Position numbers and translations under genes: made by a program. From NCBI GenBank assembly GCA_045650665.1, contig JAZRRL010000019.1, positions 8,454 to 72,453 on the forward strand: a DNA stretch of 64,000 nucleotides, written 5' to 3'. The notes beneath the pieces were generated by a model. It was not told where the DNA came from. It saw only the letters and a list, made by a program, of their open reading frames with translations, and made no database searches. The stretch's first letter is position 1. Every line of letters starts with the position of its first letter. Source of the DNA: Faecousia sp. (GTDB taxonomy: Bacteria > Bacillota > Clostridia > Oscillospirales > Oscillospiraceae). This document shows, piece after piece, positions 2,551 through 10,194 of this stretch.

Positions 2551-3750
2551 TTACATTGTATAATTGTCGAAATACCCCTGAATCAGGATGATGGGCGTAC
2601 CCTTGTCACCGGAACCGGAGGTCAGGTCACACAAAGAGCCGATCAGGTCTGTCAACCGACGGGGTGTTGTACCCTGAGATGCCATGGAGCCAGCCAAATT
2701 ACCCTTGCTGCGGATACGTTCCTCAATCGCCTGCTTCAGCTGTGCACCGGATAGACCGGCAAAATCGTTATCTGCCAGATATTTCAGCTTCAGTTCATTG
2801 GGAGTGCCCTCCAGACCGGAGGTATGGGCAACAGACACGCTGGGGTCTGCCAGTTCCCAAATCTTACCCACGGGATCCTTGAATGCACCGTCACCGTAGA
2901 CCATCACTTCAATATGCTTGCCGGTGATCTTCAAAAACCGCTCCTGAATATCCAGTACCAGATCGCCACATTCCTTGGGGAACAGCTTGATAGTGGTTTC
3001 CGTAGACTTATTGGAGCCAAGCAGGCCAAACTTTTCGTTGTAACCACTGCCGTCCACAGATTCTGTCAGAATATCATCCAGACCGCAGATCACCTGGGCA
3101 CCGGCTGCCTTCAAGATCCGCTTTGTGCGGGCACGGCTGTGAATATCGCAGGTCAGCACATTTTTGGTGTAGTCCAAAATGGCGCGGGGATTGTTGGCCA
3201 GGATGATTTCCGCCTCACAGCCTTCTTCCCGAATCAGGTCGCCATAGTATTTCACGTAGTCCACCAAAGTAAAGGGGTGCAGGTTTTCGCCGAACAGTTC
3301 CCGATACTTCGCCTCTGTCAGCACATCGCTGTAGGGATTGATACCCGCCTCATCCAGACGGTCCAGACTCACCAGCTCGTTGCCCACCTCATCGGAGGGG
3401 TAGCTGAGCATCAGTACAATCTTCTTGCTGCCACGGGCAATACCCCGCAGGCAGATAGCAAAACGGTTGCGGGACAGAATGGGGAAAATCACACCCACAG
3501 TCTCGCCGCCCAGTTTGCTGCGTACATCCTTTGCAATGGCATCCACAGAAGCATAGTTACCCTGGGCCCGTGCCACCACGGATTCCGTAATGCCTACCAC
3601 ATCCCGGTCACGCAGAGCAAAGCCTTCGGCCTGTGCCGCCTCCATCACACTTGCAACCACAATGTTTGCCAAATCGTCACCCTGCCGGATAATGGGGCAG
3701 CGAATGCCACGGGATGTCGTACCAACTTTTCTTTCCATAATGAACCTCAT
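2551..3750 (-). CDS. F420-0:gamma-glutamyl ligase (CofE)-like family protein
   Basis: N-terminus GIRCPIIRQGDDL...DVVGITESVVARAQGN and C-terminal GSGDKGTPIILIQGY typical of the clostridial CofE-like family; likely start is MERK, slightly downstream. Confidence 0.75.
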   Translation of the reverse strand: MRFIMERKVGTTSRGIRCPIIRQGDDLANIVVASVMEAAQAEGFALRDRDVVGITESVVARAQGNYASVDAIAKDVRSKLGGETVGVIFPILSRNRFAICLRGIARGSKKIVLMLSYPSDEVGNELVSLDRLDEAGINPYSDVLTEAKYRELFGENLHPFTLVDYVKYYGDLIREEGCEAEIILANNPRAILDYTKNVLTCDIHSRARTKRILKAAGAQVICGLDDILTESVDGSGYNEKFGLLGSNKSTETTIKLFPKECGDLVLDIQERFLKITGKHIEVMVYGDGAFKDPVGKIWELADPSVSVAHTSGLEGTPNELKLKYLADNDFAGLSGAQLKQAIEERIRSKGNLAGSMASQGTTPRRLTDLIGSLCDLTSGSGDKGTPIILIQGYFDNYTM

Positions 3751-3913
3751 TTCTCAGGAGCATTTTTACAGTACAGTTATACCGCAATCCGCCGGTTTTT
3801 TCAATATTTTTTTCGCATATGTCGAAAAAAACAGCATTTAAAACAATTTTTCTTGTGTGAACTGAAAAAATCTTAGGAAAACGCAAAAATTAGATAAAAA
3901 AATATAAAAAGAT

Positions 3914-3942
3914 TTGCAATTTCTTTTTCAATATGGTATACT
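3914..3942 (+). promoter_or_regulatory. sigma70-type promoter of ppdK
   Basis: TTGCAA-17 bp-TATACT with TG extension. Confidence 0.7.
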
Positions 3943-4032
3943 GGTACGGCTAAATACGGGTATTGACCCAAAGCAACACGAATTCATCAATTCTGGGCCT
4001 ATGGCCCGTCAATAAACGAAGGGAGTTTTATA

Positions 4033-6657
4033 ATGTCTCACAAGTATGTTTACCTATTTACCGAAGGTAACGGCTCTATGCGCGAGCTGCTGGGCGGTAA
4101 GGGCGCAAACCTGGCCGAAATGACCAACATTGGTCTGCCCGTTCCTCAGGGCTTCACCATTTCTACCGAAGCCTGCACCCAGTACTACGAGGATGGCCGC
4201 CGTATTAACGATGATATTCAGGCAGAAATCATGGAGTATGTTGAAAAGCTGGAAGGTATCACCGGCAAGAAGTTCGGTGACCTGGAGAATCCTCTGCTGG
4301 TTTCCGTCCGTTCCGGCGCCCGTGCTTCTATGCCCGGCATGATGGACACCATTCTGAACCTGGGTCTGAACGAGCAGGTTGTTGAGGTTATGGCTGCCAA
4401 GTCCGGCAACGCTCGCTGGGCATGGGACTGCTACCGCCGCTTCATCCAGATGTACTCCGACGTTGTTATGGAAGTCGGCAAGAAGTACTTTGAAGCCCTC
4501 ATCGACGAGATGAAGGAAAAGAAGGGCGTTACTCAGGACGTTGACCTGACCGCTGAAGATCTGAAGGAGCTGGCTGCTCAGTTCAAGGCCGAGTACAAGG
4601 CTAAGATCGGTGCAGAGTTCCCCGCTGATCCCAAGGAGCAGCTGATGGGCGCCATCAAGGCTGTTTTCCGTTCCTGGGACAACCCCCGTGCAAACGTCTA
4701 CCGTCGTGACAACGATATCCCCTACTCTTGGGGTACTGCTGTTAACGTGCAGTCCATGGCCTTTGGTAACATGGGCGACGACTGCGGCACCGGTGTTGCT
4801 TTCACCCGTGACCCCGCTACCGGCGAAAAGAAGCTGATGGGCGAGTTCCTGACCAATGCTCAGGGCGAAGACGTGGTTGCAGGTGTTCGTACCCCCATGC
4901 CCATTGCACAGATGGCTGAGAAGTTCCCCGAAGCTTTCAAGCAGTTCGTGGAAGTTTGCTCCATTCTGGAAAACCACTATCACGACATGCAGGATATGGA
5001 GTTCACCGTCGAGCACGGCAAGCTGTATATGCTGCAGACCCGTAACGGCAAGCGTACCGCTCAGGCTGCTCTGCAGATCGCTGTTGACCTGGTTGCTGAA
5101 GGTCACAAGACCGAGGCTGAGGCCGTTCTGATGATCGACCCCCGTAACCTGGACACTCTGCTGCATCCCCAGTTCGATGTGAAGGCTCTGAAGGCTGCTA
5201 CTCCCATCGGCCGTGGTCTGGGTGCTTCTCCCGGAGCTGCTTGCGGCCAGGTCGTCTTCTCTGCTGAAGATGCTGAAGCTTGGAAGAACGCCGGCAAGAA
5301 GGTTATCCTGGTTCGTCTGGAAACCTCTCCCGAGGATATCACCGGCATGAAGGCCGCTCAGGGTATCCTGACCGTCCGTGGCGGTATGACCTCCCACGCA
5401 GCGGTTGTTGCCCGTGGTATGGGTAAGTGCTGTGTTTCCGGCTGTGGCGAGATCAACATGGACGAGGAGAACAAGAAATTCACTCTGGCAGGCAAGACCT
5501 ATGCTGAGGGCGATTGCATCTCCATCGACGGTTCTACCGGTAACATTTACGACGGCCTGATTCCCACTGTTGACGCTGAGATTTCCGGCAACTTTGGTAT
5601 CATCATGGGCTGGGCTGACAAGTTCCGTGTCCTGAAGGTTCGTACCAATGCCGATACTCCCACCGACGCTAAGAAGGCTCGTGAGCTGGGCGCAGAAGGC
5701 ATCGGCCTGTGCCGTACCGAGCACATGTTCTTCGAGGCTGATCGTATCGCTGCATTCCGCGAAATGATCTGCTCCGACACCGCTGAGGAGCGCGAGGCTG
5801 CTCTGGCTAAGATTCTGCCCTATCAGCAGTCCGACTTCGAGAAGCTGTACGAGGCTCTGGAAGGTATGCCCGTGTGCATCCGTTTCCTGGATCCCCCGCT
5901 CCACGAGTTCGTTCCCACCACTGAGGAAGACATCGCTCTGCTGGCTAAGACTCAGGGCAAGACCGTTGAGCAGATCAAGGCTATCATTTCCTCCCTGCAC
6001 GAGTTCAACCCCATGATGGGTCACCGTGGCTGCCGTCTGGCTGTCACCTACCCCGAGATCGCAAAGATGCAGACCAGCGCTGTTATCCGCGCTGCCATCA
6101 ATGTGCAGAAGGCTCATCCCGATTGGAATGTGCTGCCTGAGATCATGATCCCCCTGGTTGGCGATGTGAAGGAATTGAAGTACGTCAAGAGCGTGGTTAT
6201 CGCTACTGCTGACGCTGAGATCGCCGCTGCCGGCATTGAGCTGAAGTACGAGGTCGGTACCATGATCGAAATCCCCCGTGCTTGCTTGACTGCAGACGAA
6301 ATCGCACAGAATGCTGACTTCTTCTGCTTCGGCACCAACGACCTGACTCAGATGACCTATGGCTTCAGCCGTGACGATGCAGGCAAGTTCCTGAACGCTT
6401 ACTATGATTCCAAGATCTTTGAGAACGATCCCTTCGCAAAGCTGGATCAGACCGGCGTTGGCAAGCTGATGAACATGGCCTGCACTCTGGGTCGTGCAAA
6501 TAATGACCACCTGCACATCGGTATCTGCGGTGAGCACGGCGGCGACCCCACATCCGTGGAGTTCTGCCATGCAATCGGTCTGGACTATGTGTCCTGCAGC
6601 CCCTTCCGCGTACCCATCGCCCGCCTCGCCGCCGCCCAGGCTGCCATTAAGGGCTAA
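4033..6657 (+). CDS. ppdK: Pyruvate, phosphate dikinase
   Basis: 874 aa; GGKGANLAEM, SVRSGA, GGMTSHAAVVARG phospho-His motif, GTNDLTQ, GICGEHGG; strong codon bias. Confidence 0.98.
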   Translation: MSHKYVYLFTEGNGSMRELLGGKGANLAEMTNIGLPVPQGFTISTEACTQYYEDGRRINDDIQAEIMEYVEKLEGITGKKFGDLENPLLVSVRSGARASMPGMMDTILNLGLNEQVVEVMAAKSGNARWAWDCYRRFIQMYSDVVMEVGKKYFEALIDEMKEKKGVTQDVDLTAEDLKELAAQFKAEYKAKIGAEFPADPKEQLMGAIKAVFRSWDNPRANVYRRDNDIPYSWGTAVNVQSMAFGNMGDDCGTGVAFTRDPATGEKKLMGEFLTNAQGEDVVAGVRTPMPIAQMAEKFPEAFKQFVEVCSILENHYHDMQDMEFTVEHGKLYMLQTRNGKRTAQAALQIAVDLVAEGHKTEAEAVLMIDPRNLDTLLHPQFDVKALKAATPIGRGLGASPGAACGQVVFSAEDAEAWKNAGKKVILVRLETSPEDITGMKAAQGILTVRGGMTSHAAVVARGMGKCCVSGCGEINMDEENKKFTLAGKTYAEGDCISIDGSTGNIYDGLIPTVDAEISGNFGIIMGWADKFRVLKVRTNADTPTDAKKARELGAEGIGLCRTEHMFFEADRIAAFREMICSDTAEEREAALAKILPYQQSDFEKLYEALEGMPVCIRFLDPPLHEFVPTTEEDIALLAKTQGKTVEQIKAIISSLHEFNPMMGHRGCRLAVTYPEIAKMQTSAVIRAAINVQKAHPDWNVLPEIMIPLVGDVKELKYVKSVVIATADAEIAAAGIELKYEVGTMIEIPRACLTADEIAQNADFFCFGTNDLTQMTYGFSRDDAGKFLNAYYDSKIFENDPFAKLDQTGVGKLMNMACTLGRANNDHLHIGICGEHGGDPTSVEFCHAIGLDYVSCSPFRVPIARLAAAQAAIKG

Positions 6658-6672
6658 TATTTCCTAATAATG

Positions 6673-6700
6673 AATCCCCTCGGAGCAATCCGAGGGGATT
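6673..6700 (+). terminator. ppdK terminator
   Basis: aatcccctcgga-gcaa-tccgaggggatt. Confidence 0.85.
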
Positions 6701-6720
6701 TGTGTATAACGATTGTTCGG

Positions 6721-6927
6721 TTACAGTTTTTCAAAAACCATTGTTGCCTGAATTCTGTCGCCACCGCCGAAACCAGAACTATGTGCAGATGCGGTTGTGA
6801 TTGTATGTAATCTATAACCCTTCGCCGCTTGTGCATTAATAACGTTTTCCAATTCGCCTAAATTCTTGGATGCTGTACCGATAAGTTTTTCCTTTAGTGT
6901 TACCTGTAAAACTACATATTGTGGCAT
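6721..6927 (-). CDS. DUF4177-like small protein (cassette 1 cargo)
   Basis: 68 aa; LENVINAQAAKGYRL...ATMVFEK pattern; own TTTACA-17-TATAAT promoter on minus strand near 6958-6987. Confidence 0.75.
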   Translation of the reverse strand: MPQYVVLQVTLKEKLIGTASKNLGELENVINAQAAKGYRLHTITTASAHSSGFGGGDRIQATMVFEKL

Positions 6928-7017
6928 GATTTTACCCCCTTTTATTAAATGGTATTTTAATTATAGAATAATTTGTCATATTTGTAAAGAGGGAAAGAAT
7001 ATATGGTTTTTAAGCAA

Positions 7018-7063
7018 TTTCCCTCTTTTGCTGATAGCAGCCCAGGCTGCTATCAAGGGCTAA
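7018..7063 (+). repeat. att-like repeat R1: box + palindromic core + ppdK tail (AQAAIKG*)
   Basis: tttccctcttttgc tgatagcag cccaggctgc tatcaagggctaa. Confidence 0.92.
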
Positions 7064-7081
7064 TTGCTTAACCTAATAATG

Positions 7082-7109
7082 AATCCCCGTGGATTGCTCC
7101 ACGGGGATT
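7082..7109 (+). terminator. Terminator following R1
   Basis: aatccccgtgga-ttgc-tccacggggatt followed by T run. Confidence 0.85.
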
Positions 7110-7165
7110 TTTTATATTGCAAACACCTACTATTAAGATTATAATATAATCAAGAGGTGAGGCGA

Positions 7166-7372
7166 ATGATAAGCTCAACAGAACAAAGGTTAATTGAGGC
7201 AATGATTGACTACGGTGCAAACGAGGAATTGATACATGTGTTGTGTTCCGCTTTGTCGTCGGAGCAGCAAGAAAACGCCATCCATCTTATGCAGAGACAT
7301 TATCAAAAATACAGGGAAGTAACAGAAGAGGATATGCTAAAAGTGCTTCTGATATTAACAAAGCCATCCTGA
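7166..7372 (+). CDS. Hypothetical small helical protein (cassette 2 cargo A)
   Basis: TTGCAA-17-TATAAT promoter and AAGAGGTGA RBS upstream; ATG at 7166 preferred over GTG at 7157. Confidence 0.65.
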   Translation: MISSTEQRLIEAMIDYGANEELIHVLCSALSSEQQENAIHLMQRHYQKYREVTEEDMLKVLLILTKPS

Positions 7373-7446
7373 GAAATCCGCGGGATTGCCCCATCTATTA
7401 CAGAGAACTGCACCCTACGCTATAATGCAATCAAGAGGTGAAACAT

Positions 7447-7614
7447 ATGTGCAAAGACCAAGAGTCCACTAAAACTGGGTTCAGACCCATAACCAAAGAA
7501 GATGGGCTTGCGTATATAGAATGGCTTAAAAACGGAGGCAGAGATGTCTTAGCAGACCACATATTTACAGACGATTTTAAGGCAAAAACGCCCAAGGAAG
7601 ACAATAGGAAATAA
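7447..7614 (+). CDS. Hypothetical 55-aa protein (cassette 2 cargo B), not in ORF track
   Basis: MCKDQESTKTGFRPITKEDGLAYIEWLKNGGRDVLADHIFTDDFKAKTPKEDNRK*; TATAAT and AAGAGGTGA directly upstream; stop abuts R2. Confidence 0.55.
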   Translation: MCKDQESTKTGFRPITKEDGLAYIEWLKNGGRDVLADHIFTDDFKAKTPKEDNRK

Positions 7615-7660
7615 TTTCCCTCTTTTGCTGATAGCACCACAGGCTGCCATCAAGGGCTAA
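7615..7660 (+). repeat. att-like repeat R2 (tail PQAAIKG*)
   Basis: tttccctcttttgc tgatagcac cacaggctgc catcaagggctaa. Confidence 0.92.
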
Positions 7661-7719
7661 GTTTCAATAAAATGTCCGCCGCTGGATTTCCAGCGGCGGA
7701 TATAATATAATCGGGGCCT

Positions 7720-8607
7720 TTATTTAGGTTTCGTTACTTGACGGATGCCGATCAGGATCAGCACTGCGCCCAGTAATAGCGTAATGTTCATAGGCTCTTT
7801 GAGGAATACCACACCTGCAAAAACCGAGCAAAGGGTGGACAGCGCACCAAAGGAGGATATCTTGAACACCGACATTTTTCCGGAGGCGTAGTTGACCAGA
7901 AGCTGTGCCGCAACGGAGCAGAGCAATCCAAGACACAGCACGGACACCAGGTATTCCACATGAAGCAGGGGCTCCACAAAGGTTTTGATGTTCCAATCCA
8001 CAGAGTTCATACCCATCAGGGAGAAGACCAAAGCGGCATTTGCCAGCACCAAAAAGGAACGTTCGAAGGTGGTGAACTCCTCTGCGGCTTTTCTATTGAT
8101 GGTTTTGTAAATGGCGGAGGACAGCAGGGTCAGCAGCAGGATAATAATGCCTAAAGGCTTTATAACGCCCAGTTCTTTACCGGATACTGTCATAAGAATC
8201 ACGCCTGCTACCGGCATAAGACAGAACAGCGCCTGCCGGGGTGTGGGATATTCCCGGAGAAACAGGGCGCCTGTACCGATGGTCACCACGGGCACTACCG
8301 CCAGCACCAGACCGGAAATAGTTGTGTTGGTATAAAGGAGGCCGTAGGTTTCCAGAAAATAGTAAACTACCTGCATAATCAGCATCAGCACGATGGGCTT
8401 CCAGTTTTTGCCCTTGAAGGAAAGCTTCCCCTTTCCCAAAAGCATAAGGACCACCATAAACAGAGCTGCAATCAGAAATCTGTGCGCCAGCATCACATTG
8501 GGGTCAGGGGATGCGGACAGACCAATCTTGGTAAACAAAAAGCTGAATCCCCAGATGACATTGCCCAGAGCAGCGCAAATTGCCGGCAATAGTGACTTGT
8601 TTTTCAA
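7720..8607 (-). CDS. DMT/EamA family transporter (cassette 3 cargo)
   Basis: About ten hydrophobic segments, IWGFSF and duplicated EamA pattern; TTG start at 8607 after GGAGG; own TTTACA-17-TATAAT promoter. Confidence 0.88.
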   Translation of the reverse strand: MKNKSLLPAICAALGNVIWGFSFLFTKIGLSASPDPNVMLAHRFLIAALFMVVLMLLGKGKLSFKGKNWKPIVLMLIMQVVYYFLETYGLLYTNTTISGLVLAVVPVVTIGTGALFLREYPTPRQALFCLMPVAGVILMTVSGKELGVIKPLGIIILLLTLLSSAIYKTINRKAAEEFTTFERSFLVLANAALVFSLMGMNSVDWNIKTFVEPLLHVEYLVSVLCLGLLCSVAAQLLVNYASGKMSVFKISSFGALSTLCSVFAGVVFLKEPMNITLLLGAVLILIGIRQVTKPK

Positions 8608-8756
8608 AAAGACTACCTCCCGAAACAATTTTTTCAATTATATATTAGAAAAAAGGAAATGTAAAGGCGTCTTTCCGGTTAAAAAGATTTCCTGCAACTA
8701 TTTTTATCAAGCTTTGCTTTTGCTGCGGGCTTGCAAAGCAGACATATCGACAATCG

Positions 8757-8860
8757 TTTCCCTCTTTTGCTGATAGCAACCCAGGCTGCAATTAAAGAAT
8801 CTAAGTAATTAGATTTATAATGCAAACCAACTCCTCTCGGAGCAATCCGAGGGGAGTTTT
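8757..8860 (+). repeat. att-like repeat R3 with tail QAAIKESK* and terminator
   Basis: 104 bp; direct repeat of 9344-9447 with 1 mismatch in the 81 bp from the core onward. Confidence 0.95.
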
Positions 8861-8924
8861 ACACCCATTGCAAACATTTCCTTAAAATGATATAATAGAG
8901 AAAAGGCAAAAGGAGGTATGCTGT

Positions 8925-9338
8925 ATGGTTCTCAAAGAATTTCGCATCACCCATAGCACACTGATCGAGCATTATCAGTTTATCGAAGCGCATCTTGAGG
9001 GTATTTATGCCGCTATTTCCGGCAAGCCTTTTGGGGATGGGATAAAAGATGTAGAGAAAAACAGCATCAGCGGTGTTATCAGAGAGATCAGAGATATTGA
9101 AAAAGAGAAGAGAATGCAGGTCTTTTCGGAGAATGAGTACACACAGCTGCGACAAATCATCGAAAGGCGGAACTTTTGGTGTCACTGCTGTTATTTTGAA
9201 ATGTCCTTTGATCTGAAAACCGGCGGTCCTGCCAGAGTCAGAGATGTTCAGACGCTTTTTGAGGACCTTAAAACAGCCGAGCATTGGCGAGAACAACTGT
9301 TTCACAAGAAAATTGATTTACTGGAACAAAAACGGTAA
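8925..9338 (+). CDS. Hypothetical protein with HEPN-like RxxxxH motif (cassette 4 cargo)
   Basis: 137 aa, predicted helical; RNFWCH at 9168-9185; TTGCAA(8868)-17-TATAAT(8891) promoter and AGGAGG RBS. Confidence 0.6.
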   Translation: MVLKEFRITHSTLIEHYQFIEAHLEGIYAAISGKPFGDGIKDVEKNSISGVIREIRDIEKEKRMQVFSENEYTQLRQIIERRNFWCHCCYFEMSFDLKTGGPARVRDVQTLFEDLKTAEHWREQLFHKKIDLLEQKR

Positions 9339-9343
9339 CTCTA

Positions 9344-9447
9344 TTTCCCTCTTTTGCGGTCTGTCGCCCAGGCTGCAATTAAAGAATCCAAGTAATTAGA
9401 TTTATAATGCAAACCAACTCCTCTCGGAGCAATCCGAGGGGAGTTTT
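9344..9447 (+). repeat. att-like repeat R4 with tail AQAAIKESK* and terminator
   Basis: tttccctcttttgc ggtctgtcg cccaggctgc aattaaagaatccaagtaa ... ctcggagcaatccgag. Confidence 0.95.
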
Positions 9448-9501
9448 GTATCGTTGCAAACGACTTTATAAAATGTTATAATTACAAAAAGAGGTGATTA
9501 C

Positions 9502-10194
9502 ATGGATGTATTCGATTTTTCAAAAAAGGCCGTGCTTTGGGATCTGGACGATACCCTTTACAGCCGCAGGGAAGCTGCTCGCAAAATGTTCCCCGGTATG
9601 TTCCGTCAGTGCCTTTATACGGATCGAAGCGACGCCTTTCTCAACGAAGCTGCCGCATTCATGATGACCAAGGTCAAGCGCAACAGCATGACCCACGAAG
9701 ATGCATTCCGTGCCCTTTTGAAACGTTACCCTTCAGACAAGCCCTATGTCCGGTCTGAATGTCTTGCATATTATTACGCCCATATCCGTGATTTTGCAGT
9801 TCCCTTTCCCGAAACAATCGAGATCATTCAAAAGCTAAAGGCGCATGGTCTGAAAATGGCCATCGTCACCAATATCACCCCTGAACTGCTGGAGCATCAG
9901 AAGAAAAAAGTTCAAGCGCTGGGAATTGCGACTTTGTTTGATGCCATTGTTTTTTCCGCAGAGCTGGGTGTCCATAAGCCTGACAGACGTATTTTTGACC
10001 ATACTGCCTCTCTTTTAGGTGTTCCCAACGAAGATTGTCTGTTCGTGGGAGATGACCCTGAATCGGACGTTGCCGGTGCTTTGGCTGCCGGTATGGAAGC
10101 TGTTTGGCTGGATCATTGGAATTCTGACAATATTTTTTACAACACTCCCCTCGTACATCAGGTGCATTCTGCGTCAGAATATTTCGTGCTGTAA
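9502..10194 (+). CDS. HAD-IA family hydrolase
   Basis: WDLDDTL motif I, VTN, KP and GDDPESD motifs; TTGCAA(9454)-17-TATAAT(9477) promoter. Confidence 0.92.
   Translation: MDVFDFSKKAVLWDLDDTLYSRREAARKMFPGMFRQCLYTDRSDAFLNEAAAFMMTKVKRNSMTHEDAFRALLKRYPSDKPYVRSECLAYYYAHIRDFAVPFPETIEIIQKLKAHGLKMAIVTNITPELLEHQKKKVQALGIATLFDAIVFSAELGVHKPDRRIFDHTASLLGVPNEDCLFVGDDPESDVAGALAAGMEAVWLDHWNSDNIFYNTPLVHQVHSASEYFVL

Follow-up and report, generated by a model that had tools for sequence, protein, structure and literature searches.

A tandem array of small gene cassettes at the 3' end of ppdK in Faecousia sp., probably moved in trans by large serine recombinases

Elements of the staphylococcal cassette chromosome (SCC) type, including SCCmec, psi-SCC and SCC composite islands, reside at the 3' end of rlmH (orfX) and are moved by the Ccr large serine recombinases. 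Integrons consist of the tyrosine recombinase IntI, the attI site and attC-bounded gene cassettes; to our knowledge they are the only well-described system that stockpiles and reshuffles single-gene cassettes, and essentially a Gram-negative trait. Accretion at the 3' end of fda is known for integrative and conjugative elements (ICEs) and cis-mobilizable elements (CIMEs) of Streptococcus thermophilus (ICESt1/ICESt3). In Clostridia, elements with large serine recombinases (LSRs) are conjugative or mobilisable transposons of the Tn5397 TndX and Tn4451 TnpX types. Here we consider a stretch of 64,000 nucleotides from contig JAZRRL010000019.1 of Faecousia sp. (assembly GCA_045650665.1), further referred to as the window, in which the ppdK gene (pyruvate, phosphate dikinase) is followed by small units separated by repeats of its last codons. 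We consider it probable (about 0.7) that this region is a site-specific accretion array at the ppdK end, whose units are moved in trans by LSRs in an SCC-like or integron-like manner.

Judging from the sequences, the enzyme is likely an LSR rather than an integron-type integrase, and because of this the nearest precedent would be SCC and psi-SCC accretion. In both cases the target is formed by the last codons of a housekeeping gene, restored by each element, and the end of the target gene is directly repeated at every junction. Tandem accretion that includes recombinase-less units, a hallmark of SCC, was found here as well. The enzyme class is the same, and in one LSR lineage the recombinases form an adjacent pair (283 aa and 618 aa), like CcrA/CcrB. 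In contrast to SCC, the target is ppdK and not rlmH, the LSRs are not Ccr equivalogs, and the units are mostly single genes with the median length of about 0.75 kb, compared with 3–60 kb for SCC. Moreover, the units have a stereotyped tail, terminator and promoter kit, their pool is common to many genera, and the hosts are uncultured gut Clostridia.

An initial annotation of the window had described the region as integron-like with self-expressing cassettes. This stands as far as small, shuffled single-gene cassettes with their own expression signals are concerned: they are mostly co-oriented (in the window, two of four), similar in size to integron cassettes, with the site directly after the stop codon, and their diverse cargo, mostly of unknown function, is shuffled between arrays. 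The defining components of integrons, IntI, attC and the common promoter Pc, were looked for and not found. There is no linked tyrosine recombinase; the site is of a double-strand type, about 50 bp long with a short dyad, in contrast to the folded attC of 57–141 nt; promoters and terminators belong to the cassettes and not to a common Pc; and a metabolic gene end, not an attI beside the integrase gene, serves as the capture site. The CIMEs and ICEs are similar in that non-autonomous att-flanked elements pile up beside an autonomous one at the 3' end of a glycolytic gene and are mobilised, it is thought, in cis or in trans; they differ by a tyrosine integrase, elements of several kb and few units per site. 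Transposons of the Tn5397 and Tn4451 types share the recombinase class with the loci described here, but carry a recombinase of their own and are not known to form arrays in which single-gene units lacking a recombinase stack at one gene end. Full-text literature searches yielded no description of ppdK-linked cassette arrays. A paper on small serine recombinases beside defence genes (PMC13552941), whose reference list cites SCC and "tandem mobilization", does not describe ppdK arrays.

Junctions behind ppdK

The ppdK open reading frame (ORF) occupies positions 4033..6657 on the forward strand and encodes 874 aa; its matches in relatives are 66–94% identical, and in one relative the gene is annotated as ppdK. 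Its last codons are proposed to be the chromosomal, attB-like attachment site. The last 24 nt, GCCCAGGCTGCCATTAAGGGCTAA (6634–6657), recur at 7040–7063 with 2 mismatches and at 7637–7660 with 3 mismatches, with none expected from shuffles. Two further copies had initially been listed. At these positions, 8779 and 9366, only the first ~17 nt (..CCCAGGCTGCAATTAAAG) match the ppdK end, and the tails encode AQAAIKESK* instead of AQAAIKG* of ppdK. The claim that an identical box precedes every copy proved correct: exact copies of the 14-nt box TTTCCCTCTTTTGC lie at 7018, 7615, 8757 and 9344, all in the array behind ppdK, and the 1.70-Mb assembly contains no others. When up to 2 mismatches were allowed, the window contained five matches versus 0.94 expected in shuffles. 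At each site the box is followed by 11 nt and the invariant CAGGCTGC, after which come a spare ppdK tail with a stop codon and a hairpin. The gap of 9 bp given in the initial annotation is the same distance counted to the 24-mer instead of CAGGCTGC, and its unit sizes agree with the core-to-core spacing of 406, 597, 1142 and 587 bp.

All junctions are on the forward strand. The ppdK-proximal one (6612..6657) has no box and consists of the native left arm ..CGCCTCGCCGCCGCC, the core CAGGCTGC at 6637–6644 and the tail CATTAAGGGCTAA. Junction 1 (7018..7063) is formed by the box, TGATAGCAGCC, the core at 7043–7050 and the tail TATCAAGGGCTAA, and contains a 10-4-10 dyad (TGATAGCAGC/GCTGCTATCA). In junction 2 (7615..7660) the box is followed by TGATAGCACCA, the core at 7640–7647 and the tail CATCAAGGGCTAA. 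Junction 3 (8757..8806) has TGATAGCAACC after the box, the core at 8782–8789 and the alternative tail AATTAAAGAATCTAAGTAA (..IKESK*). Junction 4 (9344..9393), with the variant spacer GGTCTGTCGCC after the box, the core at 9369–9376 and again the ..IKESK* tail, is 92% identical to junction 3 across 104 nt. A G+C hairpin follows each tail and stop (6673–6700, 7081–7110, 7675–7700, 8830–8857 and 9417–9444). The stop and terminator reported after each copy are confirmed as a stop and a hairpin at all of them, but the formal scan called terminators at only two of the five hairpins. The GC content in the array is 0.35–0.43 (about 0.5 in the cassette with the EamA gene) versus about 0.5 around it, and returns to the host level after ~9600.

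For the pattern TTTCCCTCTTTTGC-N(9-13)-CAGGCTGC, fewer than 0.1 chance matches are expected in 596 Gb. The junction was found in at least 119 stretches of a species-representative genome collection and in 60 metagenome contigs. The 119 genome stretches among the matches listed and the 60 contigs form the set of 179 loci; the counts of loci, cassettes and cargo proteins given below refer to the matches listed. Nearly all hosts are metagenome-assembled genomes (MAGs) of Oscillospirales, labelled Acutalibacteraceae, Oscillospiraceae, Faecousia or Clostridia, from guts of goat, sheep, deer, buffalo, yak, cattle and other animals. All sites of a locus lie on one strand, that of ppdK. In 54 of the 179 loci the gene itself comes immediately before the sites, on the same strand; many others are truncated by contig ends, and in other MAGs ppdK is at the contig end. 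This suggests that MAG assemblies break within the array, just past ppdK, and the arrays would account for the frequent breaks at this place. The largest array (L065) has 7 sites. No match to the junction pattern was found among IMG/VR viral contigs, and plasmid and phage collections contained no array, just ppdK ends (Vescimonas, Subdoligranulum) and a homologue of the DUF4177 cargo gene of the window.

The conservation sets in sharply at the first base of the box, before which only TAA is frequent, and continues across ATAGCA, CAGGCTGC and the codons of the tail. That hundreds of unrelated cassettes preserve a non-coding 14-mer suggests recognition by a protein. Measured from site to site, the 113 cassettes span 304–4861 bp (median, about 750 bp). 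In 107 of them the longest ORF has the same orientation as ppdK, and the gap between its stop codon and the box equals 0 in 35 cassettes and is mostly less than 20 nt in the rest. Among 110 cargo proteins, Pfam recognised 40 families, the majority of proteins having no family; examples are BspA-type LRR, MerR/TipAS, Cthe_2159, DUF4234, CAAX protease, MFS, aldo-keto reductase and HAD.

Recombinases and exchange of cassettes

The window contains no recombinase gene, as had been stated initially. Tyrosine recombinases had been suggested as candidates for co-occurrence with the arrays. Clustering of ORFs over the 179 loci pointed elsewhere: an LSR is the only recurrent recombinase-like family, and no tyrosine or other recombinase family recurs in these loci. 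The clearest case is L187, where a 7.7-kb element bounded by direct CAGGCTGCAAT[TC]AA cores follows ppdK. Its genes encode an LSR (Resolvase and Recombinase domains), a helix-turn-helix protein, a specificity subunit and a type IIG restriction-modification enzyme; farther downstream come the old tail, displaced by the element, and box cassettes. In about 14 fetched loci the LSR gene is located just upstream of the sites on the same strand, and in most of these loci its 3' end overlaps or abuts a core. An LSR gene at the end of an element beside the att site was seen in L187, L065, L081, L119, L033, L144, L151 and L206–L209, but not in the window or its genome. In L187, L065, L081 and others, LSR elements and recombinase-less cassettes occupy one array. 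Within the genus of the window, the four best LSR matches (61 genomes) all have a ppdK-type core at the 3' end of the gene.

The left arms of the LSR elements are homologous or identical to those of the cassettes. They vary by LSR subfamily and always end with ..CA|CAGGCTGC. In the L065/L081 lineage the arm TTTTCTCCTGCCCTTGATAGTAGCACCA and the canonical one have 19 of 28 positions in common. In the L165/L077/L043/L019 lineage the LSR gene is followed by variable cargo and then by the canonical TTTCCCTCTTTTGCTGATAGCAGCA-CAGGCTGC, with no core between, and a second serine recombinase gene (283 aa) lies just upstream. The best NCBIfam matches of the LSRs are CcrB and CcrC with 116–146 bits (120–146 for CcrB). 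The cut-off being 900, we rejected their assignment as Ccr equivalogs; by Pfam they are members of the LSR superfamily. Among solved structures, 3g13, a "putative conjugative transposon recombinase", is closest to the L065 LSR (E = 7.6e-39). A separate observation concerns L204 (G203:C2, reverse strand, 3621–6325), where an overlapping gene for a 283-aa serine recombinase stands before that of a ppdK-targeting LSR of 618 aa.

The cassettes change places between genomes. Two of them, 1.7 kb and 0.7 kb long, stand in one order in L024 and in the reverse order in L065, and the first of the two is found beside another neighbour in L092. In 23 or 24 groups, according to the identity threshold applied, junctions have a common upstream cassette end and different downstream units. 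Two window cassettes (1 and 2) recur elsewhere with the same right boundary. Logan contig L205 shares with the window 459 bp at 91% identity that begin at the ppdK end, include the DUF4177 cassette and reach into junction 1; its 11-nt spacer is already divergent, the homology stops about 15 nt beyond the core, and the downstream sequence is different. The second micro-ORF of the window ends at the box in L102, where it stands behind a different cassette. A MAG labelled Bacilli (L094, JALEUS010000063.1), whose PpdK is 54% identical to that of the window, has a canonical box junction with a cassette end common to the Clostridia MAGs L024 and L065. This suggests that a transfer between classes took place, provided that the MAG is correctly labelled and binned.

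The number of sites varies as well, down to zero. In the genus of the window, 12 of 61 genomes contain 1–4 box sites (1, 2 or 4) and the rest have none, the window genome having the most; the reversed pattern, used as a control, had 0 matches in the 61 genomes. Of 11 same-genus ppdK ends fetched, only L198 has box sites behind the gene (two, one of which was caught by the core scan). Seven same-genus ppdK ends with several kb downstream have no box and no second core, and no box was found in 8.5 kb behind ppdK of G215, the closest relative with sequence there. In the cultured Vescimonas fastidiosa an ordinary annotated gene lies directly 3' of ppdK. Behind ppdK the genus has no conserved gene order, and no exact empty-site allele with the same flanks could be aligned. 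The initial annotation had named identical gene order in relatives and cargo without the same boundaries elsewhere as refuting its reading; neither was observed, and the reading is supported.

Proposed mechanism and alternative explanations

In the proposed mechanism, small units (0.3–2 kb) would insert at the last codons of ppdK and stack in tandem. Each unit starts with a replacement ppdK tail and its stop codon; a hairpin terminator comes next, then in most cases a promoter of the unit, a single cargo gene, and finally the box with the 11-nt spacer as the left half-site. Each insertion would restore an intact ppdK. The LSRs would be supplied in trans from larger elements that use the same ppdK core. 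The box with the spacer (25 nt) would serve as the P arm of attP, the ppdK-like tail as the P' arm and the native ppdK end as attB, with the exchange taking place in or beside the invariant CAGGCTGC. Given the ppdK-like right arm of the unit, the ppdK end after an insertion would be attB-like again, allowing repeated capture as in SCC islands. We infer circular intermediates, the action in trans, the exact crossover and the ppdK-proximal insertion. A recombinase in trans fits because the window genome has no serine recombinase while 4 of 61 genus members have LSR genes ending in a ppdK-type site.

The dimensions of the junction are compatible with this scheme. The conserved site is about 50 bp long with a conserved left arm of 25 nt. 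The dyad has the form TGATAGCAGC-nCAG-GCTGCTATCA; its right arm is ppdK coding sequence, and the first bases of CAGGCTGC are at its centre. Published attP sites of LSRs are about 50 bp long, with half-sites of about 25 nt flanking a 2-bp crossover. The junctions fit an LSR attP in size, as do the 25-nt arm and the dyad; one sharp crossover is not given by the linkage analysis (see below). We also compared the folding of single-stranded junctions with that of shuffles. Junctions 1 and 4 fold better (z = −3.0 and −2.4, respectively), with different pairings, and junctions 2 and 3 fold no better than shuffles (z = 0.1). An attC-like folded-strand site was rejected, as the folding is not conserved between the junctions.

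The system as a whole is real and widespread, its mechanism is plausible, and its mobilising activity is putative. We see about even chances that it is an LSR-based functional counterpart of the integron, in which the ppdK end is a permanent capture site, an inter-genus (possibly inter-class) pool supplies promoter-equipped cassettes with a minimal 25-nt arm, and the recombinase is only transient, coming from visiting defence-carrying elements. If this is true, the hosts would retain a private stock of accessory genes and reshuffle it with no need to maintain the enzyme. The cassette strategy would then have evolved more than once, on another recombinase class, in gut Clostridia, and abundant, uncultured bacteria of the gut and rumen would exchange genes by a hidden route. 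Compact natural attP/attB pairs of LSRs and minimal "landing-pad" cassettes would also become available for engineering of hosts that are hard to manipulate.

Several points count against the accretion of units by LSRs in trans. No serine recombinase was found in the whole assembly, which is 94% complete; the activity is not demonstrable in the window genome, and the array there may be frozen. No circular cassette contigs were found, and no fetched contig has matching ends. Classical LSRs do not recombine attP with attL, so repeated insertion needs the regenerated ppdK end to act as attB, which is assumed. The cargo is reversed in two of the four window cassettes, unlike the prevailing orientation elsewhere. 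Finally, there is the behaviour of the spacer. We calculated the mismatch rate for junctions with the same upstream cassette and divided it by that for unrelated junctions. The ratio is about 0–0.1 upstream of the box, 0.77 and 0.60 at positions 14 and 15 (the first 2 nt past the box), about 0.33 at positions 16–21, 0.99 at position 22 and about 1 from position 33 onward. The linkage to the upstream cassette fades gradually over the 11-nt spacer, with positions 14–15 and 22 nearly unlinked to both flanks, and mapping by linkage gave no single sharp crossover position. Such a gradual loss would not be expected if LSRs always crossed over at one point, the dyad centre. It may be due to gene conversion between junctions, to an exchange of arms among LSR subfamilies, or to Ala codons at positions 22–24 that derive from the host.

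The gradual decay of linkage and the mosaic variants of spacers and tails speak for homologous recombination, that is, DNA uptake and RecA-type exchange between the junction modules with no dedicated enzyme. The modules are long enough for this (about 50–110 bp) and common to several species, and the absence of a serine recombinase from the window genome is in its favour. We nevertheless consider this unlikely. The homology on the left side is restricted to the 14-nt box with its sharp onset of conservation at base 1, and the upstream linkage is mostly gone 1–2 nt past the box, so the crossover would have to occur inside a stretch of 14 nt. RecA-type exchange gives no reason for selection to keep the non-coding 14-mer identical across hundreds of unrelated cassettes, and it leaves the same arm on the LSR elements unexplained.

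It is quite unlikely that the units are inert scars, i.e. immobile leftovers of large LSR islands after internal deletions. Elements of several kb with LSRs do insert at ppdK, the window has no recombinase, and some distal junctions are degenerate, e.g. in L077. However, small units recur intact in other genomes, with the same boundaries, different neighbours and reversed order, and their build is compact and uniform: a tail, a terminator, a promoter, one ORF and a stop codon beside the box. Junction degeneracy shows no gradient with array rank either; junctions farther from ppdK were not seen to be more degenerate in a sample that is small and ascertainment-biased.

A tyrosine recombinase could act on the dyad site, either like Xer or like an integron integrase on a folded strand; the spacer would then be an overlap with a heteroduplex that can segregate in both ways. 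The 10-4-10 dyad and the good folding of junction 1 are consistent with this, and a heteroduplex overlap could be unlinked to both flanks, as the spacer is. We consider this option very unlikely, given that junctions 2 and 3 fold no better than shuffles and that the unlinked stretch of about 11 nt exceeds the known overlaps. Overlap regions of known tyrosine recombinases are 6–8 nt long. The window genome does contain five tyrosine recombinases, but all are on other contigs (PF00589 matches are on C26, C2 and C35, with none on the window contig C19), and the LSR remains the sole recurrent recombinase near the arrays in the 179 loci. A misjoining of repeats in assembly or binning is highly improbable: MAG contigs do often break right after ppdK and the assembly has a second partial ppdK on contig C9, but the contig is 80 kb long with the array 15 kb from its start, and the junction occurs with the same structure in more than 170 contigs assembled independently in many studies, which also counts against the artefact considered in the initial annotation.

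Cassettes of the window and minor observations

Cassettes are given on the forward strand. Cassette 1 (6645..7042) includes the tail, the hairpin at 6673–6700, the DUF4177 gene at 6721–6927 on the reverse strand with its promoter at 6988–6960, the box at 7018–7031 and the spacer at 7032–7042. Cassette 2 (7051..7639) contains the tail, a terminator at 7081–7110, a promoter at 7117–7145 with an ORF of 68 aa at 7166–7372, a promoter at 7397–7426 with an ORF of 55 aa at 7447–7614, and the box at 7615–7628. It is probably a fusion of two units, since the second micro-ORF alone recurs before the box in L102. In cassette 3 (7648..8781) the tail and the hairpin at 7675–7700 are followed by an EamA/DMT transporter gene at 7720–8637 on the reverse strand, its promoter at 8665–8637 and the box at 8757–8770. 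Cassette 4 (8790..9368) has the tail, the hairpin at 8830–8857, a promoter at 8868–8896, the gene for a helical protein of 137 aa at 8925–9338 and the box at 9344–9357. The distal flank (9394..10194, forward strand) begins with the hairpin at 9417–9444 and a cassette-style promoter at 9454–9482 upstream of a HAD hydrolase gene at 9502–10194. The array ends near here, because no box follows and the GC content is back at the host level. Each window cassette has a near-consensus promoter (10–11 of 12 positions matched); the scan yielded 13 promoter-like sites versus 5.2 ± 2.3 in shuffles.

The initial assignments of the DUF4177-like protein (Pfam E = 3.6e-6) and of the DMT transporter (E = 1.7e-33) hold. 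The two micro-ORFs belong to no Pfam family. The 137-aa protein had been taken for HEPN-like. This is not supported: neither Pfam nor PADLOC gave a match and Foldseek found no PDB match better than E = 0.7. Its AlphaFold model is a helical bundle (pLDDT 80), and the R-x4-H motif (R82-N-F-W-x-H87) is invariant in 5 homologues. One homologue is array cargo in L077, in the last unit behind a degenerate junction; another, in L060, stands in an ordinary operon-like setting with no sites. Exact-protein look-ups retrieved one contig (L205) for DUF4177 and no record for PpdK, the 137-aa ORF and both micro-ORFs. The DUF4177 gene has about 71% DNA identity to a hypothetical gene in 31 Streptococcus prophage or satellite-phage records (Javan series), and this cargo family travels on other mobile elements too.

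Two observations concern ppdK itself. In the assembly of the window (G000), contig C9 contains at 2552–3103 a second, partial ppdK 3' end, whose protein is 83% identical to that of the window and ends with ..AQAAIK*, with no box sites after it; the gene may be present in a second copy, or the MAG may be contaminated by another strain or species. In two genomes of the same genus (L191 in G214 and L194 in G218), PpdK runs past ..AQAAIK into a long C-terminal extension rich in Ala, Lys and Glu. The open frames there are 965–968 aa long, and the usual attachment core is thus inside the coding region.

Further, TTTCCCTCTTTACA at 6984–6997 on the reverse strand is an inverted near-copy of the box (11 of 14 positions), 20 nt from the real one, which may be due to chance; the −35 region of the DUF4177 promoter falls inside it. 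The hairpin behind ppdK (6667–6700) corresponds to the reverse complement of the junction 1 hairpin (7082–7115) with 82% identity over 34 nt. The loop AGCAAT of the former becomes ATTGCT in the latter, as though flipped, and both orientations also occur in cassettes of other genomes.

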